From positions 73,644-137,643 of the forward strand of contig CAVQFR010000014.1 of NCBI GenBank assembly GCA_963711845.1: a stretch of DNA of 64,000 bases, written 5' to 3'. Below, one piece after another: positions 3,727-56,250 of this stretch (the first letter of the stretch is position 1; each line of letters starts with the position of its first letter). A program made the position numbers and the translations under genes. The stretch comes from an uncultured delta proteobacterium. GTDB taxonomy: Bacteria > Desulfobacterota > BSN033 > UBA1163. The notes under the pieces were generated by a model. It was not told the origin of the DNA. It saw only the letters and a program-made list of their open reading frames with translations, and made no database searches.

Positions 3727-3815
3727 TGGTGCCTAGGGCCGGACTTGAACCGGCACGGTGGGGGGCCACCGAGGGATTTTAAGTCCCTTGCGTCTACCAA
3801 TTCCGCCACCCAGGC
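3727..3815 (-). tRNA. tRNA-Leu (anticodon UAA), long variable arm, CCA encoded
   Basis: Reverse complement reads GCCTGGGTGGCGGAATTGGTAGACGCAAGGGACTTAAAATCCCTCGG...GGTTCAAGTCCGGCCCTAGGCACCA; 7-bp acceptor stem pairs, anticodon loop CTTAAAA, T-loop GGTTCAAGTCC; closely resembles E. coli leuZ. Confidence 0.9.
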
Positions 3816-4100: not shown

Positions 4101-5334
4101 TTACTTCTTATGCCTAAGAATGAAGAGCCCGTGATTCTTGTCCGTGATGTAAATATATCCCCGATTATCGACGATCACGTCTTCTGTCTGGGTGGCCAAT
4201 TCTTTGGGAAGCAGTCCCCTCTTCTTCTTGGGTGAAGCCGGGATGAAATAGGCAATAGGCCTGGGCACGCCCGGGGCAGCTGATGTCGTAAAGCCATAGG
4301 CCTCCACTCTCGTAACAGATATGGATGATGTTATCGACATCCGCAAGACAAGGTTGATGGTGGGGCATGTGGATGTTATGCGGCCCGAACTTTCCTCCGA
4401 GTTCCTGGAAATCTCGAACTCCTAATTCCTCCGGAGGAACCGGGATAGGGAAATTTGCAATTGGTTTGGGTTTCTCCTCATTTGTCATATCCACAACCAA
4501 TGCAAGGTTAAGCGGGTCCCGCTCTTCTTCGAGGATGGCCTCCGTTGTGGCGATCGCCAGTTTCCTCGACGGGATGGGCAAATAGGTGTGAGCTCCCACA
4601 ATGCTTCCAAAATCTCCGATGTCGATGCGGCCGAGTTGGCGAGGATGGGAAAGATCGGAGATGTCCAGGGTGATAAAACCGGCCCGACCATAGGGGAGAT
4701 AAGCTCTCTCTCCTATCACATACGGCGGACCATGGAGTTGATAGAAGCGATCCGCCTTTTCGCCTCCCTCTTCCCATTGTCCTTTAAACCACCACCGTGA
4801 AACCTCTTTGGGGTGGGTCGGATCGCTTATATCCACAGCAACAAAGATGTTTCCTTTATAACCCTTCATGTTGGCCGCAAGATACGCATATTTTCCACCT
4901 GAATAAAAGTTACGGTGGGTTCCAAAGCCTCCGGTTTCAAAAGAGCCCAGTCGCTTGGGATCCGTCGGATTCTTAACATCCCAGATCAGGATGCCTTCAC
5001 CGAAAGGCAGAGAGGGATCGTGTCCCCAGATATCGTTCCGACCCAGGATCCCATCCCCGATTCTCTCCAGAGCGGTGACCATCTTCCCCTGGGCCACCTG
5101 AACTTGTAATGTCCATGTATTGGCCGGACCGGGGATGAATTTGAGAAGCTCGGGTCGAGAGGGACGGGTGATATCCATGATGGTCCAGCCGCGGTGCCAG
5201 AAATGGCCGATATACAAGTACCAGCGGCCCTCCACTTCCTGAATCGCCATCTTGAATCCAGGCCTTTCGTCGAGGTCATGGTATGCGACCGTCTCCATGT
5301 TCTTGCTGATAAAACCCGGACTCTCACTCATCAC
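4101..5334 (-). CDS. LVIVD-repeat beta-propeller protein (apparent frameshift near 3' end)
   Basis: 389-aa ORF with about six repeats of hydrophobic-D-hydrophobic-SDP-x-x-P pattern (ILIWDVKNPTDP, FVAVDISDPTHP, FITLDISDLSHP, LALVVDMTNEEKP, LWLYDIS); final repeat continues in another frame in ORF 4101..4346 (...DVIVDNRGYIYITDKNHGLFIL). Confidence 0.6.
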
Positions 5335-5525
5335 TCACACTCCCACTAAGACTAATTCCCCCACTAGCAGGTTGTTGAAAAAGAGACTATTTCTCAGGCT
5401 GCTCAAAAATGCCCAGATGCAAGGCTCCCGAAATCCTGAGGAATGAGGCGTACTTGGAGGTACGCCGCAATGACGAAGGATGAGGGAAACGAAGCAGATG
5501 GGCGTTTTTCAGCAGCCTGCTAGAT

Positions 5526-7030: not shown

Positions 7031-8926
7031 ATGATCTCCTACTGGCTCACGCATATCGTTAACGGACTCTCCTTCGGCATGCTCCTTTTTGTCCTGGCCG
7101 CAGGGCTATCGCTCATTTTCGGGTTATGCCGGATCGTCAACCTGTCCCATGGTTCTTTCTACCTGTTGGGAGGGTATATTGGATTCTCAACGGTTCGCTT
7201 GACCGGAAATTTTCCCCTTGCCGTCCTCCTCGCCATGCTCTCCATGGCCGTTCTGGGAATACTGACGGAACGCATTCTCCTTCGCCGGTTCCGGGTCAAG
7301 CCCCTGGCCCAGGTGTTGTTGACCTTCGGTCTTATCTTCGTTTTTCAGGACGCGGCCATATGGATATGGGGAGGAACGCCTGTCCTGTTGAAGAAACTTC
7401 CTATCCTCACCGGCGCGACGAACCTCTTCGGTTTTTACTATCCGACCTACAGACTTCTCATCCTGTTGATCGGGTTGGTCATCCTTTTCTTTCTCTGGTG
7501 GCTCCTGATACGCACCCGGCTGGGCATCTTCATCCGGGCGGCGGTTGACGACGGAGAAATGGCGAATGGGGTCGGGATTCGCATGAATCTTCTCATGACC
7601 ATGGCCTTCGGTTTTGGCACCCTGTTGACAGGACTGGCCGGGAGTATCGGGGCGCCCTTTCTGGGGGTCTATCCCGGTCTGGATATCGAGGTGCTGCTCT
7701 ATGCGATGGCCGTGGTCATCGTCGGCGGTCTGGGCAGCTTGAAGGGCTCTTTCCTGGGCGCCCTCATGGTTGGCTTAGTCGACTCGATGGCCAAGGCCCT
7801 CTGGCCGGAGACGGGCATGTTTTCGATGTTTGCCCTGATGGCCATCGTATTGATTCTGAAACCTACCGGTCTTTTCGGCCTTCCCATTGCACCCATCAGC
7901 CAGGCATCGGTGTCGGAGGAGATCTTTCTTGAAGCGATTCCTTCAGGCGCCGGACATCCGTTGGGGTGGAGACGGAGGGCGTTGATCCATCCCTCATTCA
8001 TCTGGATCATGACGGCCTGTCTGGTGGCTGCAGGCCTGCTCTGTCCGATCATTCTTTCTACATACTACGTCAGACTGTTTACCCTGGCCTTGATTTGGGC
8101 GATCTTTGCCATGAGCCTCGATCTCATTCTCGGCCTGGGAGGAATCATCTCTCTCGGCCATGCGGTATTTTTCGGAATCTCTGCCTACACGATCGGATTG
8201 GCAGCTCGGTTCTTAACGCCCAATCTTTTCCTCCAGATCGGCCTAGCTCTGTTCGTCTCTGCCTTCGCTGCCCTGGTGTTGGGATGGCTTCTGCTCAGGA
8301 GTCGCGGGGTCTATTTCATGATGTTGACCATCGCCTTTTCCCAGGTCTTTCGGGCGATTGCCCATTCCTGGCGTTCCGTGACAGGCGGAGGGGATGGCCT
8401 CTCCGGTTTTGTACGGCCCATGTGGATGACTTCTGTCGAAACCTTCTACTACTTCGCCCTCTTCGTATTCATCGCCGTCTTTCTCTTCCTCCGATTTTTC
8501 GTCAAATCGCGGGTCGGAATCTCCCTGATCGGGATCCGCGAAAGTGAAAAACGCATGACGAGCCTTGGCTATCACGTAGACCACATCAAGCTTCTCTCCT
8601 TCGTCGTGTCGGGCGGCCTCGGCGGGATCGCCGGCCTCCTGAACGTCTATTTCAACGGGTACGTCAGCCCTGATTATTTTTCTGTGGATACATCCGCACA
8701 GGCCATCATCATGATCATTCTTGGCGGTGCAGGAACATTGATCGGACCCATCCTCGGATCGTTCTTCGTCATCTTCATGCAGAACATCTTGAGCGCCGTG
8801 ATGGAGCGATGGACCCTGGTCCTCGGCGTTCTCTTCATCCTGGTGGTGATCGGCGCCCCGGCAGGAATGGTGGGACTTTGGAGAAAACAATGGCACAAAT
8901 TCAGCCGGAGACAATCCCCGTCCTGA
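7031..8926 (+). CDS. branched-chain amino acid ABC transporter permease, fused LivH-LivM
   Basis: 631-aa polytopic membrane ORF; N-half LivH-like (…VNLSHGSFYLLGGYIGF…), C-half LivM-like (…LDLILGLGGIISLGHAVFFGISAYT…). Confidence 0.9.
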   Translation: MISYWLTHIVNGLSFGMLLFVLAAGLSLIFGLCRIVNLSHGSFYLLGGYIGFSTVRLTGNFPLAVLLAMLSMAVLGILTERILLRRFRVKPLAQVLLTFGLIFVFQDAAIWIWGGTPVLLKKLPILTGATNLFGFYYPTYRLLILLIGLVILFFLWWLLIRTRLGIFIRAAVDDGEMANGVGIRMNLLMTMAFGFGTLLTGLAGSIGAPFLGVYPGLDIEVLLYAMAVVIVGGLGSLKGSFLGALMVGLVDSMAKALWPETGMFSMFALMAIVLILKPTGLFGLPIAPISQASVSEEIFLEAIPSGAGHPLGWRRRALIHPSFIWIMTACLVAAGLLCPIILSTYYVRLFTLALIWAIFAMSLDLILGLGGIISLGHAVFFGISAYTIGLAARFLTPNLFLQIGLALFVSAFAALVLGWLLLRSRGVYFMMLTIAFSQVFRAIAHSWRSVTGGGDGLSGFVRPMWMTSVETFYYFALFVFIAVFLFLRFFVKSRVGISLIGIRESEKRMTSLGYHVDHIKLLSFVVSGGLGGIAGLLNVYFNGYVSPDYFSVDTSAQAIIMIILGGAGTLIGPILGSFFVIFMQNILSAVMERWTLVLGVLFILVVIGAPAGMVGLWRKQWHKFSRRQSPS

Positions 8927-12627: not shown

Positions 12628-14077
12628 CTATCTTTTAAGTACGGGCACGGAATATGGCCCTTCTCGAATGAAGGCCACAGTCGGTTCAATCCCTTTTTCT
12701 CGATAACGGTAAACAGCAAATTGGACAGCCTTCTGTACCATCTCCTGGGCCTTCTCAACGGCAGGCTTTATCCTTTTTCCCTTCATAAAATCGAGGCCAC
12801 AGACTCCCGGAAGGATGCAGTAATTTTCTCTCTCAATTTCCAGGGAACAATAAATCAGCCCGTCCTCTCCGATTTTTCTCAGGACCTTCCCCCAGACCTC
12901 GGGTTCCCATTGATCCTTTGTAAACTTCCAGCCGGAAGTTTTCAGTAAATCGAGATAGCCGTCCGGTCCCTGCAATTTTAGCAGGTGAATCAGACTTCTG
13001 TATTCCGGAGACCCGATGGGGTTGATGAAATCCCGGTTATTCGCTGCGATGATGATGACACCCCCTTCTTTCACCGCCGGGATAGCGCCCACCCCTGCCT
13101 TGGCCGTCTGGTAATGATCTCTTCCCACATATCCGCTGTGAGTCAGTACGATATCGAACTCCTCATCAAGAGGGATCTCCGCATAGCCCTTGATCATTTC
13201 AAAGGCCTTCATATTTCCCTCCACCATATCCCCTGTAAATACTCTCACGAGGCGCAAATCTTTATCCAGGTTGACGTTGATAACAAAATCAACTCCGACC
13301 GTCTGGGCAACTTCCAAAGCCTCCTCGTGACATGGATTCCCTTCGAGGACGAGGTTCGTTGCCCGGGGGTCTTCAAGATAAGGCAGGCCCGTGAAATCTT
13401 TGAATGGTCTTGACGTCCACCAATCCCGGACAAACGGATTTTCTCCCACCGGAGATCCCTGTGAAAAAATGACTCTCGACGAGTCCTGTCGCAATCTTCA
13501 GGTCCGCAAAATAGAAGTCCCGATTGACATAGACATGGGTCCCTCTTTTTGTCTTTCCGATACTCTCCAAAAGATCGTTATTCTCACAATCGTGGTCCAG
13601 GATCGTGTACTGTTTAACCACTTCCTCCCCGTACATCTCCACCTTCTCATCCGGGGTGCTTGCTCGATGCATTCCTGTCGCTACAATAATCTTGATATTT
13701 TCTTTCTTAATCCCTGAAGACTCCAGGCGTCCAAGCAGCGGGGGGAGGATGCCGCCTTCTCCTTTATAAGGAACGGGCCTTGTAATATCGGAAACAGCAA
13801 TGGCCACAGACATCTGTTCGGGAGGTTTCCCTTTTTTCCGGATGATCTCTTCCAAAGGGGGACTGCTGATGGGGGCTAGAAAAGCCTGCTCAAAGGCCTT
13901 TTGGGGATCCGGTAATACGGCAACCTCCTTCATGGTGAGTTCAACACTGTTTGGAGGCACCCAAACCTCTATCGCGTTTCTTCCAAACTCTACTGAGATT
14001 TTCTTCCAATCCTTCATATCAATTTTTTTAATAGCCTTTTTAAGGTCGCTTCGCATCGTGGTTCTCCTGACGATCAT
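12628..14077 (-). CDS. LarA-family (nickel-dependent lactate racemase-like, DUF2088) protein, interrupted by apparent -1 frameshift
   Basis: Two overlapping ORFs (13373..14077 N-part with VAIAVSDITRP, IVATGMHR, FFTGISGGRKSVCPG; 12628..13494 C-part with LEGNPCHEE) together match one LarA-like protein; frame change near 13380-13400 at a G/C run. Confidence 0.7.
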
Positions 14078-14438: not shown

Positions 14439-14702
14439 CTATGAAGAAGCCATCGGCTTAGGATACAAACGCAGATAAATCCCAAATACGTCATCTGCCA
14501 TTTTTTCGGTTGTCTCTTTAATCTCATGTAAACTTGATATGAAAGAGTGCAGCGATTCGTCAAGTTTCGTTATGTTCTCACAGTTCCTTTTTGAATTTTC
14601 TAATAGTTTTTTCTCCCGCTCACGAGATTCTTCAATAAGATCTCTTAACTTTTCTCTCTCTTCTTCAGTCCACTCTGACACAAGCTCATCGACTGTCTTC
14701 AT
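14439..14702 (-). CDS. hypothetical small charged coiled-coil protein
   Basis: 87-aa ORF rich in E/K/R; weak SD upstream; no recognisable family. Confidence 0.3.
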   Translation of the reverse strand: MKTVDELVSEWTEEEREKLRDLIEESREREKKLLENSKRNCENITKLDESLHSFISSLHEIKETTEKMADDVFGIYLRLYPKPMASS

Positions 14703-15030
14703 GACCTATCCTTTCTTGCGGGAGATAGGAAATATAAAAGCAAAATATATACCGGCTTCATGGGTCATCCAGGAAACCATAAAATAACTCACCTCTTCGA
14801 GGAGTTAGACAATCATAAGAAAACCCGGCGAAAACTGACCCTTCAAAAAAAGAGAAACGCTTTACTCTTTTTAGAAAAATCGTTTCCCTTTTTGGGAAGA
14901 TTGAATGGATTCGATCTGTCGAAAAAATTCGGAGGGAGGTTATTGAATCAGCAAGAGAGATCGATTTCACTTCTTATGCTGCCACTATCTCGAGCGGGCT
15001 CTCCATCTCAAAGGCGAACTGAATGCAGGA

Positions 15031-15079
15031 CCCCTCACCCTTCCCCTCTCCCCAGCGGGAGAGGGTGGGAGTGAGGGGG
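15031..15079. repeat. GC-rich palindromic repeat, copy 1 (CCCCTCACCCTTCCCCTCTCCCC / GGGAGAGGGTGGGAGTGAGGGGG)
   Basis: Read directly; immediately 3' of the peroxidase gene; related copies at 28669, 36175, 46536, 56160. Confidence 0.6.
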
Positions 15080-15083
15080 TCAT

Positions 15084-16484
15084 CTAAAGTTGGCGCATAA
15101 AAGCCACAAGATCCCTCTTCTCCTGCTCGCTCAGTTTGAGCTCAAGAATCAAATTGAAAAACTCCACCGTATCTTCCAACGTCAGGAGCCTTCCATCATG
15201 CAAGTAAGGAGGGGAATCTTTAATCCCTCGCAAAGGAAAGGTCTTGATGGGGCCATCTGCAGAGGCATATCTCCCATTAATCATCCGCGGTTTAAAGAAA
15301 CGTTCACCCTTCAAGTTGTGCATCAGATTATCGGTATAGTAGGGAGCTGGATGACAGCTTCCGCAAGCAGCTTTGCCGAAGAAGAGTACCTGCCCCCGCA
15401 TTTCCGGTTGGGTTGCCTTTTTCGGATCAAGCTTTCCGTCGATCCCAAGCTTAGGAGCCGGCGGAAAGTCCAGCAACGCCTGGAACTCCGCCATAAAATG
15501 GACCTGGCTCCCCCGCTCCAGGATGTTGACCCCTTTTTTCGTAGCAATCACCGGGTCGCCGTCAAAATATGCAGCCCTTTGTTCAAATTCGGTGAAGTCT
15601 TCGACCGACTTCAAAGCTCGCTGCGACCCAAACAGCCGCTGGATGTTCACACCCCGTAAACTAGGGGTATCCAGACGATGCCGGAATTCCTGGGGCCGGA
15701 TATCCCCAACAAGGTGTGTCGAGGCATTGGTATGTCCGTTTGCATGGCAGTCAAAACAGACGACCCCACGGCTTGGACGCTCGGACCGCCGGTCCTCGGT
15801 TTGGTTGAACTGCTGTTGCGGGAACGGGGTGACCAGTAGCCTCAGGCCTTCAATCTGCTTGGGGTTTAGAACTCCATTGAACAGCGCATAGTAGTTATCA
15901 AGAGTGACCAGTTTCCCCTGCGAAACATCTCCTAGGTCAGATCTCGTGGTCAGATAGATCGGTGCTGGGAACTCAGGAATCAAGTGATCCGGTAAGTCAT
16001 AATCCAGGTCAAAGCGCGTGAGGTCCCGACCTTCTTGCTTCTTGATCTCATCAATATGGAACTTGGGAAAGAGCATGCCCCCTTCAGGATGATTAGGATG
16101 CGGGAGCGGGAAAAAACCCGCCGGGAATACGCCCTTCTCGCGAATCTCCTCCGGACTCATTCCGGCCAATCTCTCCCAAGTCATCCCCCCTGGAAGTTTC
16201 GCACGAACGCCCTCCTGAACAGCCTTGCCGCGAGACATCGTCACCCCTGCGGCCGGACGGTTACTCAGGTCATAGCGCTCACTAAGCAAATCCATCTGAC
16301 GCTTCATCACCCCTGGCTTTGCAGCTTTCATCCGGGTCATGATCGCTTCAAAACTCTCTTTGATCACCACGGGAGAGTAACTCGACTCTCCTCTTGAAGG
16401 AGATTGGGCAAAAGTAGAAATCGAAACAATAATCAATGAGAGAGTCACACTTGCCAATCCAATGTATTTTATCGCCTTTGACAT
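15084..16484 (-). CDS. di-heme cytochrome c peroxidase family protein with long N-terminal extension
   Basis: 466-aa ORF, signal peptide, two CxxCH heme motifs (CFDCH, CGSCH) and CCP-like C-terminal motif SPPYLHDGRLLTLEDTVEFF; roughly 240 aa precede the first heme site. Confidence 0.75.
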   Translation of the reverse strand: MSKAIKYIGLASVTLSLIIVSISTFAQSPSRGESSYSPVVIKESFEAIMTRMKAAKPGVMKRQMDLLSERYDLSNRPAAGVTMSRGKAVQEGVRAKLPGGMTWERLAGMSPEEIREKGVFPAGFFPLPHPNHPEGGMLFPKFHIDEIKKQEGRDLTRFDLDYDLPDHLIPEFPAPIYLTTRSDLGDVSQGKLVTLDNYYALFNGVLNPKQIEGLRLLVTPFPQQQFNQTEDRRSERPSRGVVCFDCHANGHTNASTHLVGDIRPQEFRHRLDTPSLRGVNIQRLFGSQRALKSVEDFTEFEQRAAYFDGDPVIATKKGVNILERGSQVHFMAEFQALLDFPPAPKLGIDGKLDPKKATQPEMRGQVLFFGKAACGSCHPAPYYTDNLMHNLKGERFFKPRMINGRYASADGPIKTFPLRGIKDSPPYLHDGRLLTLEDTVEFFNLILELKLSEQEKRDLVAFMRQL

Positions 16485-16923
16485 TTTTCTTAACCTCCCT
16501 TTTATGGAATTTTTCAGGAACTGAGATTCACCTTCTTCTTCTCATGATCCCACTGCCAGCCATCTGATCCTATGAAAATACCTGCACACACCAAATAGAT
16601 TAGTATCTACGGCATTCCCGGGTGAATAGGGCAAACACTGTATTTTTCTTGAAGAAGGACAGTATTTTGAGACTAATGGGAATAAAACGATTTTGTGGAA
16701 TATCCGAGGGGATCCAATTTTCAAGAAACATTCCTCGCCCTTGACGGCGAACGATCGTACCGGGTGATGATTACCCCGAGCATCATCTTGTTTGATTTTC
16801 TAAATGATTTTTTCTCGACGTCGTTTTTCCTTGGGTTTAAGAATTCCCCCTCTTTGCTTCCATCTCTGTTTTTCCTTCATCTCCATCTCTCGATTCATCA
16901 CACCCGCCCTTTCAGGAGAATTT

Positions 16924-17367: not shown

Positions 17368-17700
17368 TTATCCTTTATCACAGCCAAAATATTTAAATAG
17401 GCCGCTCACATAGTTCCCCCATGTTGGAATCAATCTATCAATTTCGTATGACAGCAGAGTTATCTCTCCGCTATGAATCTTATTGTGTACCTCCTCCAGC
17501 TTCTCATATCTCAAAGGCCATGTCATTTTTCCGGATTGATTAACCACATAGAAAGTTTTTTGCCTCTCGTCAATTCCGACGATTCGCAATTGGTTAAGGC
17601 CATCTGCAGCCCAGAATTTTATATCCTGATCCTTCATTTCCTTTAATTTTTCCCAACTAAACAAGCACTTCGGAATAATCTCTATGATTTTCATCATCAT
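17368..17700 (-). CDS. hypothetical protein
   Basis: 110-aa ORF, AGGAG upstream of start; AT-rich context; no recognisable family. Confidence 0.4.
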   Translation of the reverse strand: MMMKIIEIIPKCLFSWEKLKEMKDQDIKFWAADGLNQLRIVGIDERQKTFYVVNQSGKMTWPLRYEKLEEVHNKIHSGEITLLSYEIDRLIPTWGNYVSGLFKYFGCDKG

Positions 17701-18174: not shown

Positions 18175-18249
18175 TGGAGGCGGCAATCGGATTTGAACCG
18201 ATGAATAACGGTTTTGCAGACCGTCGCCTTACCACTTGGCTATGCCGCC
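18175..18249 (-). tRNA. tRNA-Cys (anticodon GCA)
   Basis: Reverse complement GGCGGCATAGCCAAGTGGTAAGGCGACGGTCTGCAAAACCGT...ATCGGTTCAAATCCGATTGCCGCCTCCA; acceptor stem pairs perfectly, discriminator U, CCA encoded. Confidence 0.9.
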
Positions 18250-18251
18250 CT

Positions 18252-18326
<75 letters not shown>

Positions 18327-28668: not shown

Positions 28669-28718
28669 ACCCCTCGCCCCTCCCTCTCCCCTGAGGGGAG
28701 AGGGGAAGGGTGAGGGGG
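28669..28718. repeat. GC-rich palindromic repeat, copy 2
   Basis: cccctcgcccctccctctcccctgaggggagaggggaagggtgaggggg. Confidence 0.6.
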
Positions 28719-40430: not shown

Positions 40431-42896
40431 TCACTTTGCAGAATCTTTCCTCCGGGGAATTCCCAGCTCCTTCTCGACCTGTAAGATTCTATCGGTCGTC
40501 TTGATGACGGTATCAGGGTTGAGGGAGATGCTGTCGATGCCACACCGGACCAGAAACTCGGCGAATTCCGGATAATCGCTGGGAGCCTGGCCGCAGATGC
40601 CAATCTTCCTTCCATTCTTCTTGGCGCTTTCAATCAATGATTGAACCATTTTTTTCACCGCCGGATCCCGCTCATCGAAGATATGAGAAACTTTCTCTGA
40701 ATCACGATCCAATCCCAATACCAACTGGGTCAGATCATTCGATCCGATGGAGAATCCGTCAAAAACCTCGGCAAATTCATCAGCCATGATCACATTGCTG
40801 GGGATCTCACACATCACATAGATCTCAAGGCCATTTTGCCCCTGGATCAGACCGTGCTTTCTCATCTCCGCAATGACCAACCTCCCCTCCTCCACCGTCC
40901 TGCAGAAGGGAATCATCAATTTTACATTGGTCAAACCCATCTCATTCCGAACCTTTTTCATCGCCTTGCATTCAAGAGAAAACCCTTCCTGATAAGACTC
41001 ATCATAATACCGGGAGGCTCCCCGGAAACCAATCATGGGGTTGTCTTCAACAGGTTCAAATTCGCTTCCACCGATGAGATTGGCGTACTCATTGCTCTTA
41101 AAATCGCTCATTCTCACGATGACATCTTTAGGATAAAAGGCAGCAGCGATCTTGGCCACCCCTTGAGCCAGCCGATCGACGAAGAAGACCTCCTTATCTT
41201 CATACCCGATGGTCAACTGTTCAATCTCCTTTTTAATATGACTATCGCTGATTGAATCAAATCGGACAAGCGCCATGGGGTGGATTCGTATAAAATTATT
41301 GATAATGAATTCCAGTCTGGCCAGACCCACCCCGTCATTGGGAATAAAGGAAAGGTGGAAAGCATTGTCCGGGTTTCCCACATTCATCATGATTTTTGTT
41401 TGAGGCTTCTCCAGATGTGCCATATCGAAGTGCCTCACTTCATAATCGAGGATCCCTTCGAAAACCAATCCCGTCTCCCCTTGCGCACAACAAACGGTGG
41501 CACTTCGATAGTCTTTCAAAAGCTCGCTTCCATCCCTTGTTCCCACCACACAGGGAACGCCCAGCTCCCGGCTGATGATGGCCGCATGACATGTCCTTCC
41601 CCCGCGGTCGGTCACAATGCCCGAGGCAATTTTCATGATGGGTTCCCAGTCCGGGTCCGTCATCTGGGTGACCAATATCTCGCCCTTCTTAAACTTCTCT
41701 ATCTCTCTTGGACTGGTGATGACATTGATGGGGCCAGCGCCAATCTTTTCACCGACGCTCTTCCCCTGGACCAAAACATTCCCCTTCTCCTTTAAGTAGT
41801 AGGTCTCCAGAACATTCATCGCTCGCTGGGATTTTACCGTCTCGGGCCGTGCTTGAAGAATAAAGAGTTCCTGGGTAATACCATCCTTGGCCCACTCAAT
41901 ATCCATGGGCATGTAGACCCCTGCTTTTTTCGAATAGTGCTCTTCGATCCTCACCCCCCATTGGGCAAGGAGGATAATCTCTTCGTCGCTCAGGATGAAA
42001 TCCGCCCTTTCTTGTGCGGAGACAGGAACATTCTTGGTTGACCCCTCTCCCTCCAGGGTGTAAATCATTTTGATCTCTTTACTTCCGAGGGTTTTCTGAA
42101 TGATGGGTTTATAATTTCCTTTAATGCAGGGTTTAAATACATAGAATTCATCGGGATTGATAACTCCCTGAACAATATTCTCCCCTAATCCATAAGCACC
42201 TGTGATGTACACCACGTCAGGAAAGCCGGATTCTGTATCGATCGTGAACATCACCCCAGAACAGGCCTTATCGGAGCGCACCATCTTCTGAACTCCGATA
42301 GAAAGAGCGACCGAAAAGTGGTCAAACCCCCTATGGGTTCTGTAGGAGATGGCGCGGTTGGTAAAAAGGGAGGCAAAACATCGTTTGCAGGCTTGAACGA
42401 GGGCGTATTCCCCGCGGATGTTGAGATAAGTCTCCTGCTGACCGGCAAAACTCGCACCAGGAAGGTCTTCGGCTGTTGCGCTGCTACGGACCGCCACATC
42501 CGTATCCTCCCCATACTCCTTGCACAACTTCCGATAGGCTTTAACAACCTCCTCAACGATCTCCCTGGGAAACTCCAAACTGTGGATAAGCCTCCGGACC
42601 CGGCTTCCCCTCTCTGAAAGGTTTTCCACATTTTCGACATCGAGATCAGAAAAGATCTCTCGAATATTTTCTTTGATCTTTGGTTTACTCTTACCATCAT
42701 GCCAGTCTTGGACAATCCCTTCGTCCAAAAGGGCATGGTAGGCATTCACGGTTACAGCAAATCCATTAGGGACACTCACCCCTTGTTTCGTCAGTTCCTT
42801 TCGCATCTCTCCCAAGGAGGCATTCTTTCCTCCAACTGTGGGAAGATCGTCGAGTCCAATTTCGTCAAACCAAAGAATGTAAGGTTTTTCCCCCAT
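40431..42896 (-). CDS. ppsA: phosphoenolpyruvate synthase (pyruvate, water dikinase)
   Basis: 821-aa ORF with PEP-utilising enzyme mobile domain (phosphohistidine region GGRTCHAAIISRELGVPCVVG) and PEP/pyruvate-binding TIM-barrel. Confidence 0.95.
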   Translation of the reverse strand: MGEKPYILWFDEIGLDDLPTVGGKNASLGEMRKELTKQGVSVPNGFAVTVNAYHALLDEGIVQDWHDGKSKPKIKENIREIFSDLDVENVENLSERGSRVRRLIHSLEFPREIVEEVVKAYRKLCKEYGEDTDVAVRSSATAEDLPGASFAGQQETYLNIRGEYALVQACKRCFASLFTNRAISYRTHRGFDHFSVALSIGVQKMVRSDKACSGVMFTIDTESGFPDVVYITGAYGLGENIVQGVINPDEFYVFKPCIKGNYKPIIQKTLGSKEIKMIYTLEGEGSTKNVPVSAQERADFILSDEEIILLAQWGVRIEEHYSKKAGVYMPMDIEWAKDGITQELFILQARPETVKSQRAMNVLETYYLKEKGNVLVQGKSVGEKIGAGPINVITSPREIEKFKKGEILVTQMTDPDWEPIMKIASGIVTDRGGRTCHAAIISRELGVPCVVGTRDGSELLKDYRSATVCCAQGETGLVFEGILDYEVRHFDMAHLEKPQTKIMMNVGNPDNAFHLSFIPNDGVGLARLEFIINNFIRIHPMALVRFDSISDSHIKKEIEQLTIGYEDKEVFFVDRLAQGVAKIAAAFYPKDVIVRMSDFKSNEYANLIGGSEFEPVEDNPMIGFRGASRYYDESYQEGFSLECKAMKKVRNEMGLTNVKLMIPFCRTVEEGRLVIAEMRKHGLIQGQNGLEIYVMCEIPSNVIMADEFAEVFDGFSIGSNDLTQLVLGLDRDSEKVSHIFDERDPAVKKMVQSLIESAKKNGRKIGICGQAPSDYPEFAEFLVRCGIDSISLNPDTVIKTTDRILQVEKELGIPRRKDSAK

Positions 42897-43136: not shown

Positions 43137-43202
43137 GAGAATTGATTTTTGAATGAATTATTATTAATATAAGATGTTATCCTAGAGAAGGAAGTGAAAT
43201 TC

Positions 43203-46031
43203 ATGAAAAGTTCGAAATATGTCTACCTTTTTGAAGAAGCCGATGGGACCGATAAGAAACTCCTTGGCGGGAAAGGAGCGGGTTTGGCCGAAATGACCCG
43301 TATGGGTCTCCCTGTTCCGCCTGGATTTATCGTCACCACCGAGGCTTGTCTTCATTTTTATGAGAACAAAAAGAGACTTCCTAAAGGCCTCCTGGAAGAG
43401 GTGGAAGTCAATCTGAAAATGGTGGAGGAAAAAACAGGCAAAAAACTTGGAAGCGCTCAAAATCCCCTCTTCTTCTCTGTCCGGTCGGGCGCGGCGATGT
43501 CCATGCCTGGAATGATGGACACCATTCTCAATTTGGGCTTAAACGAGAAGACTCTTGAGGGTTTGATCCAGATCACGTCGGATGGAAGATTTGCCTATGA
43601 TGCTTACCGAAGATTTATTCAACTTTTCGGAAAGATCGCCTTGGGGTTGGAAGAAAAGGAATTTGACCAAATCCTTAACCAGACAAAAGAAAGAGTGGGG
43701 GCCAAAGAGGATATTGATCTCAATGCTGATTATCTCAAGGACATTTGTAAACAATATCTGGGATTAATCAAAAAAAGGACGGGAACCCCTTTTCCTCAAG
43801 ACCCGATGGTTCAACTCAGACTCGCCATTGAAGCGGTTTTCAAATCCTGGATGGGCAAGAGGGCGGTGGATTATCGAAAGGAATTCAACATCACCCGTGA
43901 CATGGCGAACGGAACCGCCGTCAATGTCTGCACCATGGTTTTTGGGAACATGGGTTTTGACTCGGCAACGGGGGTTGCGTTTACACGAGACCCGGGCACA
44001 GGAGAGAACATTCTCTATGGGGAATATCTTGTGAATGCCCAGGGTGAAGATGTCGTGGCCGGGATCCGGACACCCAAACCCATCCAAGAGATGAAGAAGG
44101 AAATGCCGAAAACCTACCGAGAGATGGAGCGGATCAGAAAAATCTTGGAAGAGCATTTTCATGAAGTTCAGGACTTCGAGTTCACCGTGGAGAAGGGGAC
44201 CCTCTATATCCTTCAAACTCGAAATGGGAAGATGAACGCTCAGGCGATCGTTCGAACTTCTAAAGACATGGTCTCTGAAAAACTAATTAATAAGGAAAAA
44301 GCTGTCCTGAGATTGAAACCTCAAGAGCTGGAACAACTCCTCCATAAGCGGATCGATCCAAATTTCAAGGGGAAACCAGTCTGCGTCGGCCTCGCAGCTT
44401 CCCCGGGAGCAGCCTCCGGAAAAGCAGTGTTCGATGCGGATGAAGCAGAAAGGTTGGGAAAACTTGGGCAAAAACTCATATTGGTGCGAGAGGAAACGAA
44501 ACCCGAGGATATTCATGGCTTCTTTGCTGCCCAGGGGATCTTGACGAGCCGGGGAGGAAAGACCTCCCATGCCGCAGTGGTCGCAAGGGGTATGGGCAAA
44601 CCCTGTGTATCTGGATGCGAAGAGTTGCACATCGATCCACAGAAGAGAGAGACCACCGTAGGGAATATTCACATCAAAGAAGGAGATTTCATCACCATCG
44701 ATGGCTCCAGAGGCGAGGTCTATCTGGGAGAGGTCCCTACCGTAGACCCTGAAATCAGCAAAGACCTCCTTACGCTCCTGGGTTGGGGGGATGGGATAAG
44801 AACGTTGGGCGTTCGGGCCAATGCCGATACCCCTGAGGCCGCGATCAAAGCAAGGCAGCTGGGTGCAGAAGGGATCGGTCTCTGCCGAACAGAGAGAATG
44901 TTCAACGCCGCGGATCGGCTCCCCATTGTTCGGGAGATGATCTTGGCGGGGTCGAAAGAGAAGAGGGCAGAAGCGATTGCAAAGCTTCTTCCCATGCAGC
45001 GCAGCGACTTTAAGGAGATCTTCAGGGCCATGGAAGGACTGCCGGTGACCATCCGTCTCCTCGACCCACCGCTTCATGAATTTCTCCCATCCGCCGAAGA
45101 ACTGGCCGAAGAATTGAGAAAGCTGAAGGAGATTGATACCGCCTTTTCCACCATGGAAAACATCTCTGATGCGATGAAGTTTCTGGATCCCTCTTTCCGC
45201 GAATCACTGGGACTCCTCGACCACGTGGTGACGGATATCGTCGAGATTAAAGAGAAGAGGCTCGATAAGAAGCTCATCCGAAAAGAGCAGGAAACTCTCA
45301 GGAAGGTGAAAGAGATGATGGAGGTCAACCCCATGCTGGGTCATCGAGGGGTCAGGTTGGGGATTACCTATCCAGAGATCTATAAGATGCAGATTCAGGC
45401 GATTCTGGAGGCCGCCGCCGAGTTGATCAAAGAAGGTCTTGATATTCAACCTGAAATTATGGTCCCCCAAGTCTGCACCGCCCAAGAATTGAAATGGGTT
45501 TCTCAACTCGTCTTAAAGGTCCAAAAGGAAGTGGAGAAACAATTTAGAATCCGGATCCCCTTCAAATTCGGGACGATGATCGAAGTGGTGAGAGCCTGTA
45601 TGAGGGCCGGGAGATTGGCGGAGGTGGCAGACTTCTTCTCCTTCGGGACCAACGACCTCACTCAGGCCACCTTCTCTTTCTCCAGAGAAGATGCGGAAAA
45701 CAAATTCCTGCCCCTTTACAATCAGCGGAAGATTCTCCAGGACAATCCCTTTGAAGTATTGGATGTGAAAGGCGTGGGAAGGTTAATGATGATCGCGATC
45801 GAGTGGGGAAGGAGGACAAAACCGGATCTGAAGATTGGGATCTGTGGTGAACATGGTGGGCATCCGGAATCGGTCGAATTCAGTCACAGCATCGGACTTT
45901 CCTATGTCAGTTGCTCTGCTCCACGCCTCCCGATTGCGCGTCTGGCAGCCGCCCATGCCAAATTGAAAGAGAAGGAGAAAAAACCTTCGGAAAAATACGA
46001 CCCCGATGTTTTTGGCATACCCTCTGTTTAA
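43203..46031 (+). CDS. ppdK: pyruvate, phosphate dikinase
   Basis: About 940-aa ORF with PPDK N-terminus (KYVYLFEEADG…GGKGAGLAEM), phosphohistidine domain (GGKTSHAAVVARGMGKPCVSG) and C-terminal PEP-binding barrel; ATG 43203 preferred (SD AGAAGGAAG). Confidence 0.95.
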   Translation: MKSSKYVYLFEEADGTDKKLLGGKGAGLAEMTRMGLPVPPGFIVTTEACLHFYENKKRLPKGLLEEVEVNLKMVEEKTGKKLGSAQNPLFFSVRSGAAMSMPGMMDTILNLGLNEKTLEGLIQITSDGRFAYDAYRRFIQLFGKIALGLEEKEFDQILNQTKERVGAKEDIDLNADYLKDICKQYLGLIKKRTGTPFPQDPMVQLRLAIEAVFKSWMGKRAVDYRKEFNITRDMANGTAVNVCTMVFGNMGFDSATGVAFTRDPGTGENILYGEYLVNAQGEDVVAGIRTPKPIQEMKKEMPKTYREMERIRKILEEHFHEVQDFEFTVEKGTLYILQTRNGKMNAQAIVRTSKDMVSEKLINKEKAVLRLKPQELEQLLHKRIDPNFKGKPVCVGLAASPGAASGKAVFDADEAERLGKLGQKLILVREETKPEDIHGFFAAQGILTSRGGKTSHAAVVARGMGKPCVSGCEELHIDPQKRETTVGNIHIKEGDFITIDGSRGEVYLGEVPTVDPEISKDLLTLLGWGDGIRTLGVRANADTPEAAIKARQLGAEGIGLCRTERMFNAADRLPIVREMILAGSKEKRAEAIAKLLPMQRSDFKEIFRAMEGLPVTIRLLDPPLHEFLPSAEELAEELRKLKEIDTAFSTMENISDAMKFLDPSFRESLGLLDHVVTDIVEIKEKRLDKKLIRKEQETLRKVKEMMEVNPMLGHRGVRLGITYPEIYKMQIQAILEAAAELIKEGLDIQPEIMVPQVCTAQELKWVSQLVLKVQKEVEKQFRIRIPFKFGTMIEVVRACMRAGRLAEVADFFSFGTNDLTQATFSFSREDAENKFLPLYNQRKILQDNPFEVLDVKGVGRLMMIAIEWGRRTKPDLKIGICGEHGGHPESVEFSHSIGLSYVSCSAPRLPIARLAAAHAKLKEKEKKPSEKYDPDVFGIPSV

Positions 46032-46535: not shown

Positions 46536-46574
46536 TCCCCCTCTCCCCTCAGGGAGAGGGGAAGGGTGAGGGGG
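46536..46574. repeat. GC-rich palindromic repeat, copy 4 (partial)
   Basis: ccccctctcccctcagggagaggggaagggtgaggggg. Confidence 0.6.
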
Positions 46575-56159: not shown

Positions 56160-56250
56160 TCCTCCCCCTTGACGGGGGAGGACTAAGGTGGGGGTGGACA
56201 GGATGTGCTCCCCCTCACCCCCACCCTCTCCCGCAAGGGGAGAGGGAGAT
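56160..56250. repeat. GC-rich palindromic repeat, copy 5 (with adjacent CCTCCCCCTTGACGGGGGAGG hairpin)
   Basis: cccctcacccccaccctctcccgcaaggggagaggg. Confidence 0.55.

Follow-up and report, generated by a model that had tools for sequence, protein, structure and literature searches.

One gene in a 64,000-nucleotide stretch of contig CAVQFR010000014.1 from an uncultured delta proteobacterium (the whole stretch is called the window below) encodes a 466-residue cytochrome with two c-type heme sites, which belongs to a very large family with the fold of the bacterial cytochrome c peroxidases (bCCPs) and MauG. The family membership and the fold are secure. Its product is best read as a periplasmic heme enzyme of the peroxide-stress response that combines the bCCP fold with a non-canonical heme ligation and an extra conserved domain, a reading that we hold with slightly more belief than doubt; we infer in it the substrate, the heme ligands, which way the electrons flow and what the N-terminal domain does. 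The window gene itself is an unremarkable orthologue, and it is the family that forms a conspicuous blind spot in bacterial heme enzymology. It comprises thousands of sequence clusters in more than 10 phyla, with ca. 75% identity from one phylum to another and with members in Pseudomonas aeruginosa, Legionella, rhizobial symbiosis plasmids, Geobacter, Nitrospira and anammox bacteria, and it has neither a Pfam or NCBIfam model nor a structure. The family is strikingly under-characterised and probably mis-annotated: the name given to it in RefSeq, 'cytochrome b6', is misleading, and its sole functional labels, nitrate reduction and dechlorination, are 25 years old and at odds with its fold and its genomic company. 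To read the family as part of the OxyR/PerR peroxide regulon, with enzymes of the bCCP fold, provides a concrete, testable hypothesis and supports re-annotation.

Two CxxCH motifs, and no more, are present in the protein: CFDCH (residues 243-247) and CGSCH (residues 374-378). Among 86 homologues with 44-94% identity, C243, C246, H247, C377 and H378 were invariant and C374 was conserved in 99%, which indicates that both motifs are functional heme c sites and not chance occurrences. Attachment of c-type heme needs export, and the protein appears to start with a signal peptide, MSKAIKYIGLASVTLSLIIVSISTFA followed by QS, in which the n-region has lysines, the core is hydrophobic and the cleavage motif is TFA/QS; no lipobox Cys was seen in it when the sequence was read. 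The computed mass was 52.4 kDa for the precursor and ca. 50.9 kDa for the mature protein with two hemes. The coordinates of these and the other features are collected in Table 1.

A sequence-only reading of this gene had proposed a diheme cytochrome c peroxidase fold. Of the protein, sequence methods recognised the C-terminal third alone. A Pfam scan of the protein yielded nothing significant, with CCP_MauG (PF03150) unlisted even at E<=1, and neither it nor five or six distant relatives gave a match above cut-off in Pfam and NCBIfam; the precomputed Pfam entry was likewise empty ('-') for nearly all relatives. The NCBIfam models for MauG, MbnH and MauG-like proteins matched residues 357-465 with 30-36 bits versus cut-offs of 340-444. 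When phmmer, a family profile of 86 sequences and hhalign were used, ca. residues 315-466 alone were aligned with the C-terminal heme domain of solved bCCPs, so that the C-terminal cytochrome c domain is the sole part with a bCCP/MauG-like sequence. An AlphaFold model built from 12 sequences had a predicted local distance difference test score (pLDDT) of 52 and was discarded, while the model built from 86 diverse relatives reached a pLDDT of 79.3 and a predicted template modelling score of 0.80, with a pLDDT of 84-95 in the N-terminal region (residues 40-230). In the fold comparison, the figures were 14.0 for both the Shewanella oneidensis bCCP (3o5c) and YhjA, 13.8 for MbnH, 13.7 for hydrazine synthase gamma, 12.4 for MauG, 11.3 for BthA and 6.5 for RoxA. 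The AlphaFold model and the two conserved CxxCH motifs thus bore out the proposal, and the overall diheme peroxidase fold of the bCCP/MauG superfamily is confirmed at the level of a predicted structure.

The same reading had placed the first heme motif near residue 245, which agrees with its observed position, and had described what precedes it as an extension of ca. 240 residues with no obvious motif. For ca. residues 27-200, neither a Pfam or NCBIfam match nor a structural counterpart in the PDB was found. The long region before the heme is real, but its family-specific part is shorter than proposed. Of the ca. 240 residues, 26 form the signal peptide and those from ca. 205 to 242 form the helix and loop that usually precede CxxCH, and subtraction of both leaves a family-specific addition of ca. 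170 residues. In the predicted structure this domain opens with a long helix (residues 45-70), after which alpha/beta elements and loops are mixed. The per-position conservation of the N-terminal region (0.6-0.8) was about equal to that of the heme core (0.7-0.9). Its invariant or near-invariant residues are R70, M83, G86, K87, P121, P126, H129, M137, R157, D159, D163, P165, P170, E171, P173, D186, G190 and N197, and it also carries a conserved LPEFPxPxxLTT..LGDV motif. The N-terminal region, which is found in every full-length relative down to ca. 43-45% identity, is thus an integral part of the family. The substrate-recognition domain that the sequence-only reading suggested is not supported; the pattern of conservation, with invariant His, Met and acidic residues, fits a cap that belongs to the heme domains no less well than a recognition module that could be separated from them.

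We compared the protein with three bCCPs by profile-profile alignment (hhalign), in which the P. aeruginosa CCP sequence was 100% identical to PDB 1eb7; since only the C-terminal domain was aligned, the equivalences given for heme domain 1 (Trp94, Gln104, Glu114 and His71) are motif-level guesses. The canonical bCCPs (P. aeruginosa 1eb7, S. oneidensis 3o5c, Nitrosomonas europaea 1iqc and Geobacter sulfurreducens CcpA/MacA) lack the ca. 170 N-terminal residues present here. Met275, which is the ligand of the electron-transfer heme in P. aeruginosa CCP, aligned with the family-invariant Phe443, and the ligand Tyr of MbnH is found at the same position. Furthermore, the Trp located between the hemes of bCCPs and MauG (Trp94 in P. 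aeruginosa) has no counterpart here. The sole Trp of the protein, W103, lies in the N-terminal domain at a position where the family majority is Phe (58%), and no Trp is conserved in the family; the inter-heme Trp therefore cannot be present. As far as the motif spacing indicates, the position of Trp94 would be taken by G286/S287, which recalls the Ser found at the Trp position of BthA (PMC6405878). S424, P426 and H429 aligned with T256, P258 and H261 of the P. aeruginosa Ca-site/propionate motif, S424 and P426 being conserved, and motif inspection alone pairs D272 with N79 of the P. aeruginosa Ca2+ site. In heme domain 1, which was not alignable by hhalign, H257 and H269 occupy the loop corresponding to the distal loop of bCCP His71 and vary among the homologues, and the conserved acidic residues E299, E301, D308 and D310 are sequence-level candidates for the counterparts of bCCP Gln104/Glu114. 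In a profile search, His389, which is situated 11 residues after the second proximal His, aligned with a His of hydrazine synthase gamma and MbnH. Since the C-terminal heme of hydrazine synthase gamma is ligated by two His, a ligation of heme 2 by His378 and His389 is proposed.

The family proved to be very large. A search of a 90%-cluster database gave at least 8000 matches, as did each of two further searches started from distant clades, and an exhaustive search of 50% representatives gave 494 proteins at E<1e-30. The best 120 matches listed from the 90%-cluster database were all ca. 466 residues long with 86-94% identity; more than 100 homologues have exactly 466 residues and align from residue 1, and full-length relatives down to ca. 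43-47% identity (P0138, P0139 and P0127) align from ca. residue 30 or 58 to the C-terminus. Scanning one genome per species revealed relatives in at least 598 species from more than 10 phyla, and the locus comparisons below cover the best 80 of these. The proteins of these loci share 73-91% identity with the window protein and come from many phyla, their sources being Thermodesulfobacteriota, Geobacter, Desulfomonile, Planctomycetota (including Ca. Brocadia pituitae), Nitrospirota, Acidobacteriota, Myxococcota (Myxococcus), Pseudomonadota, Reyranella, Mitsuaria, Legionella, Verrucomicrobiota, Binatia, Armatimonadota, Bacteroidota and Sumerlaeota. Plasmid copies with 58-76% identity were found in Legionella, Methylocystis, Mesorhizobium, Rhizobium and Sinorhizobium. 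Among the best 80 loci, the nearest relatives of the window gene are in metagenome-assembled genomes (MAGs) of Thermodesulfobacteriota (91% protein identity); at the DNA level the window shares with them the gene and ca. 130 nt upstream alone (83-86%), and the flanks are not syntenic.

In their source records the relatives are named "cytochrome c peroxidase" (JGI) or "cytochrome b6/B6" (RefSeq), while members of a Nitrospirales cluster are named "cytochrome C Snr1" and a Legionella adelaidensis relative is named "cytochrome c Hsc". We take Snr1 to be P. aeruginosa PA3032 and Hsc to be a high-spin cytochrome c from Desulfomonile tiedjei. Snr-1 was reportedly described by Kerschen et al. (2001, J Bacteriol) as a 52.5-kDa cytochrome c highly similar to the D. 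tiedjei cytochrome, and the latter is said to have been reported by Louie et al. (1997, Arch Microbiol) as a unique 50-kDa diheme high-spin cytochrome c co-induced with dechlorination; our computed masses fit both values. Homologues were present in three Desulfomonile MAGs (L016, L026 and L032), the one in the D. tiedjei MAG (L016) being 79% identical, and P. aeruginosa was absent among the best 120 matches of a third homologue search made with a proteobacterial profile. The window protein resembles the Snr1/Hsc family in its 466 residues, its mass of ca. 50-52 kDa, its two CxxCH motifs and its exported N-terminus, and no difference was detected in a comparison of these features. Going by the pipeline-transferred names and by L016, it appears to be an ordinary Snr1/Hsc-type member. 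The distinct subfamily suggested by the sequence-only reading exists as a deep branch of the bCCP/MauG fold; it is not new, but very large and already named in public annotation. That reading had also considered that the N-terminal region might be a known fused domain of a characterised subfamily, and here the answer is divided: the subfamily has a name, but its function and the structure of its N-terminal domain are uncharacterised.

The link to oxidative stress comes from the relatives. In P. aeruginosa, snr1 (PA3032) was bound by OxyR in chromatin immunoprecipitation-chip experiments and was among the targets for which the authors confirmed binding in vitro (PMC3378865). Its expression was down 2.8 log2 in an oxyR mutant (PMC12475218), and it has been placed in an H2O2-related LysR regulon (PMC3557286). 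The gene neighbourhoods of the relatives match this OxyR control. Among the 282 nearest and second-nearest neighbour open reading frames (ORFs) of the 80 loci, the commonest Pfam families included Rubrerythrin (8), FUR (5), LysR (4), Catalase (3) and Fe/Mn-superoxide dismutase (SOD) (3), with Ferritin, AhpC-TSA and DUF2383 found twice each; the ABC_tran, HD and alpha/beta-hydrolase families occurred at similar counts. Such stress families account for a few tenths of a percent of bacterial genes, and their share of ca. 10% among these neighbours thus represents a strong enrichment. A Fur-family gene was located within 6 kb in 11 of the 80 loci and on the same strand in all but one of these 11. 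The five Fur-family neighbours tested all matched PerR models best and one LysR neighbour matched OxyR best, with every score below the equivalog cut-off. Compact, operon-like arrangements on one strand included, in the order of transcription, Fur, cytochrome and rubrerythrin genes (L018), SOD and cytochrome genes (L007), rubrerythrin-like, cytochrome and SOD genes (L052, Brocadia pituitae), and cytochrome, SOD and ferritin/Dps genes (L051). All-versus-all ORF clustering of the 80 loci and the window disclosed no universal neighbour and no conserved operon partner.

On the reading that we favour, the protein would be exported by the Sec pathway and would act as a ca. 50-kDa periplasmic diheme c-type cytochrome on a deep branch of the bCCP/MauG fold. 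Heme 1 (C243/C246/H247), which has no conserved distal-His loop, may provide an open high-spin reactive site for H2O2 or a related small oxidant. Heme 2 (C374/C377/H378), where Phe443 stands in place of Met or Tyr, may be bis-His ligated through His389 and receive electrons from periplasmic donors, and a probable function of the N-terminal domain is to cap or complete either the heme pockets or the surface on which donors dock. The ligand assignments are sequence-based, and the AlphaFold2 model contains no heme. Hsc takes its name from a high-spin low-potential heme, and such a heme would be compatible with the absence of the Met/Tyr ligand and with the unconserved distal-His loop.

Several points weigh against this reading. 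We know of no family member with a demonstrated enzymatic activity. The window gene itself has no oxidative-stress neighbour, and stress genes accompany the family in a minority of the loci only. Of the canonical bCCP features, the Met ligand and the Trp between the hemes are missing and no distal-His loop is conserved, so that canonical peroxidase chemistry cannot be assumed. The probable link to Snr1 and Hsc derives from transferred names and from the 79%-identical L016 protein, and older reports reportedly tie snr-1 to nitrate reduction and the D. tiedjei member to reductive dechlorination. We also considered, as a minority view with some real weight, that the family is a mechanistically distinct diheme class, without a Met/Tyr ligand or a bridging Trp, in which the N-terminal domain (e.g. 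His129, Met83 and Met137) forms part of a heme pocket. Plain H2O2 reduction would then not be its job; it might instead act on NO, on organic hydroperoxides or on species derived from superoxide, or it might oxidise a target in the periplasm within the OxyR/PerR response.

A more specialised role, which we regard as improbable, is that of an oxidant-activating enzyme similar to MauG, BthA or MbnH, in which H2O2 would generate a high-valent diheme state that oxidises or cross-links a specific periplasmic target docked by the N-terminal domain. The genes of MauG and MbnH lie with those of their substrates or partners. No conserved adjacent partner gene was found in the 80 loci, which argues against a partner-specific role of the MauG type; the recurrent neighbours are instead scavenging enzymes and peroxide sensors. 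In addition, the family has an invariant Phe where MauG and BthA have the Tyr that stabilises their bis-Fe(IV) state. The MauG model TIGR03791 gave 36 bits versus a cut-off of 444 and no mau genes were present in the window or the 80 loci, while the model TIGR04039 of MbnH, which pairs with MbnP, gave 30 bits versus a cut-off of 363 and no conserved partner gene was found. Still less credible, and in our view quite doubtful, is a dedicated electron-transfer cytochrome of anaerobic respiration, as originally proposed for the named members: P. aeruginosa Snr-1 was reportedly needed for nitrate reduction, and Hsc of D. tiedjei was said to be induced together with reductive dechlorination. The names 'Snr1' and 'Hsc' on relatives, the homologues in the Desulfomonile MAGs and a Methylocystis plasmid copy near nirB, nrtA and an ANTAR regulator gene speak for such a carrier, and a review repeats that Snr-1 gives reducing power to nitrate reductase (PMC12491237). 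However, nitrate reductase, molybdopterin and reductive dehalogenase families were absent among the commonest neighbour families of the 80 loci, the family occurs in organisms of very different respirations, including the aerobes Reyranella, Mitsuaria, Legionella and rhizobia, and its fold belongs to peroxidase or oxidase enzymes rather than to small carriers. As for the mutant evidence behind the nitrate label, snr-1 presumably lies just upstream of the molybdenum cofactor genes mobA, moaB2 and moeA2, and the phenotype of the insertion mutant may accordingly be polar.

A further idea is that of a nitrogen-oxide enzyme acting on NO, hydroxylamine or nitrite by a chemistry related to that of hydrazine synthase gamma, to which we assign a slim chance, below that of an electron carrier. 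The similarity to hydrazine synthase gamma is no greater than that to peroxidases, the neighbours are genes for defence against reactive oxygen species and not for the nitrogen cycle, and the family is common where no special nitrogen-oxide metabolism exists. Compared with hydrazine synthase gamma (5c2v_C), moreover, the window gene stands alone without alpha and beta partners and its product has the extra N-terminal domain; the hydrazine_gamma model gave 11-21 bits versus a cut-off of 625. RoxA (4b2n) resembles the window protein in having a diheme bCCP-like core, large extra segments and a late first heme motif. Lastly, the unusual length alone might suggest that the gene was misannotated and owes its long N-terminus to a start codon set in the wrong place or to two fused ORFs, and we give this practically no credence. 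It was refuted by the strong ribosome-binding site placed 9 nt before the ATG, by the signal peptide at the very N-terminus, by the more than 100 homologues of identical length, by the retention of the N-terminal region down to ca. 43-45% identity and by the confident model.

Table 1 Features of the cytochrome gene, its product and the window (positions of the window; loci are numbered as in the text)
Feature	Position	Strand	Remarks
Cytochrome coding sequence, complete	15084..16484	(-)	466 aa + stop, ATG start; full-length 466-aa homologues
Shine-Dalgarno sequence GGGAGG, 9 nt 5' of ATG	16494..16499	(-)	AGGAGG in L001-L004
Putative Sec-type signal peptide, residues 1-26	16407..16484	(-)	Assigned by eye, without a predictor
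Family-specific N-terminal domain, ca. residues 40-200	15885..16367	(-)	AlphaFold model, conservation
First (N-terminal) cytochrome c domain of bCCP-like core, ca. residues 205-335	15480..15872	(-)	
Heme-binding motif 1, C243-F-D-C246-H247	15744..15758	(-)	Followed by invariant N249-G250-H251
Second (C-terminal) cytochrome c domain, ca. residues 350-466	15087..15437	(-)	phmmer, hmmsearch, hhalign vs PDB bCCPs
Heme-binding motif 2, C374-G-S-C377-H378	15351..15365	(-)	
His389, candidate distal ligand of heme 2	15318..15320	(-)	99% conserved; putative ligand role
Phe443, invariant	15156..15158	(-)	At ligand position of Met275 (P. aeruginosa CCP) / Tyr (MbnH)
GC-rich hairpin directly after TAG stop	15029..15081	(-)	dG -47 kcal/mol, z -3.4 vs shuffles
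Palindrome core copies	15044-15065, 28682-28704, 46539-46560, 56224-56246		First copy forms the post-stop hairpin of the cytochrome gene
Direct repeat ATAGGATCA-N12-GTGGGATCA, 61-90 nt before ATG	16545..16573	(-)	Kept in L001-L003
tRNA-Cys(GCA) + tRNA-Gly(GCC), upstream of region	18175-18326	(-)	Tandem, 2 nt apart
tRNA-Leu(TAA)	3727-3815		

Some relatives showed arrangements of their own. In the Brocadia pituitae locus (L052), the Fe/Mn SOD ORF directly downstream of the cytochrome gene (7513-8205, plus strand) is extended in frame at its N-terminus by a stretch with a twin-arginine-like signal (MLDRREFLTITGAGGAALLFG...LHA). If this start is the true one, an exported SOD may accompany the exported cytochrome. 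Plasmid homologues of Mesorhizobium (L081) and Methylocystis (L083), named 'cytochrome b6', are followed on the same strand by a DUF4142 gene (7337-7939 and 7443-7946, respectively), and the Mesorhizobium copy is also near DUF892 and low-affinity iron permease genes. DUF4142 and DUF892 are ferritin-like stress proteins, and this alphaproteobacterial plasmid arrangement may be a small stress or iron module. On plasmid B of Sinorhizobium americanum (L082, 5833-7248), a symbiosis plasmid, the homologue lies between the nodA region and nifHDKE, a location that points to a possible part in the protection or support of nitrogen fixation under microoxic conditions. A divergent gene for a response regulator with an HD-GYP-type HD domain lies upstream of the cytochrome gene in the three nearest relatives of the window gene (L001-L003; ca. 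4160-5510, minus strand) and is absent from the window.

The window gene is monocistronic, with long intergenic spaces, and lies among unrelated housekeeping genes. Its neighbours are ilvD, a split LarA-like gene, two small ORFs, the tRNA-Cys and tRNA-Gly genes, a CDP-alcohol phosphatidyltransferase gene (pgsA-like), an SLT gene, genes for a resistance-nodulation-division efflux system, pyruvate phosphate dikinase (PPDK)-like genes, glyS and ftsK. The direct repeat upstream of the ATG is a candidate regulator-binding site, and a conserved AAAAATAC...AAAAATAC block was observed further upstream of it. The hairpin after the stop codon is likely a terminator or a repetitive extragenic palindromic (REP)-like element. 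Its palindrome core, CCCTCTCCC-N(3-6)-GGGAGAGGG, occurs four times in the window versus 0 expected in shuffles, and looks like a REP-like or terminator repeat family. A promoter/terminator consensus scan gave no result above the shuffled expectation.

The two flanking small ORFs, 14439-14702 (minus strand, 87 aa) and 17368-17700 (minus strand, 110 aa), had no Pfam match, and the 880-bp stretch between the cytochrome gene and the 110-aa ORF contained no ORF of at least 80 aa on the strand of the gene and no Rfam match. An Rfam scan of the window detected three tRNAs only, with no regulatory RNA near the cytochrome gene. At 12628-14077 on the minus strand, two overlapping ORFs make up a split gene of the LarA type (lactate racemase-like). 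The ORF 13373-14077 matched Lar_N (E 5e-55), and 12628-13494 gave just a weak match to LarA_C. The split points to a frameshift, a pseudogene or an error of assembly. Two adjoining, divergent paralogous genes for phosphoenolpyruvate (PEP)-utilising enzymes, both with the domain architecture of PPDK/PEP synthase, are located at 40431-42896 (minus strand) and 43194-46031 (plus strand).

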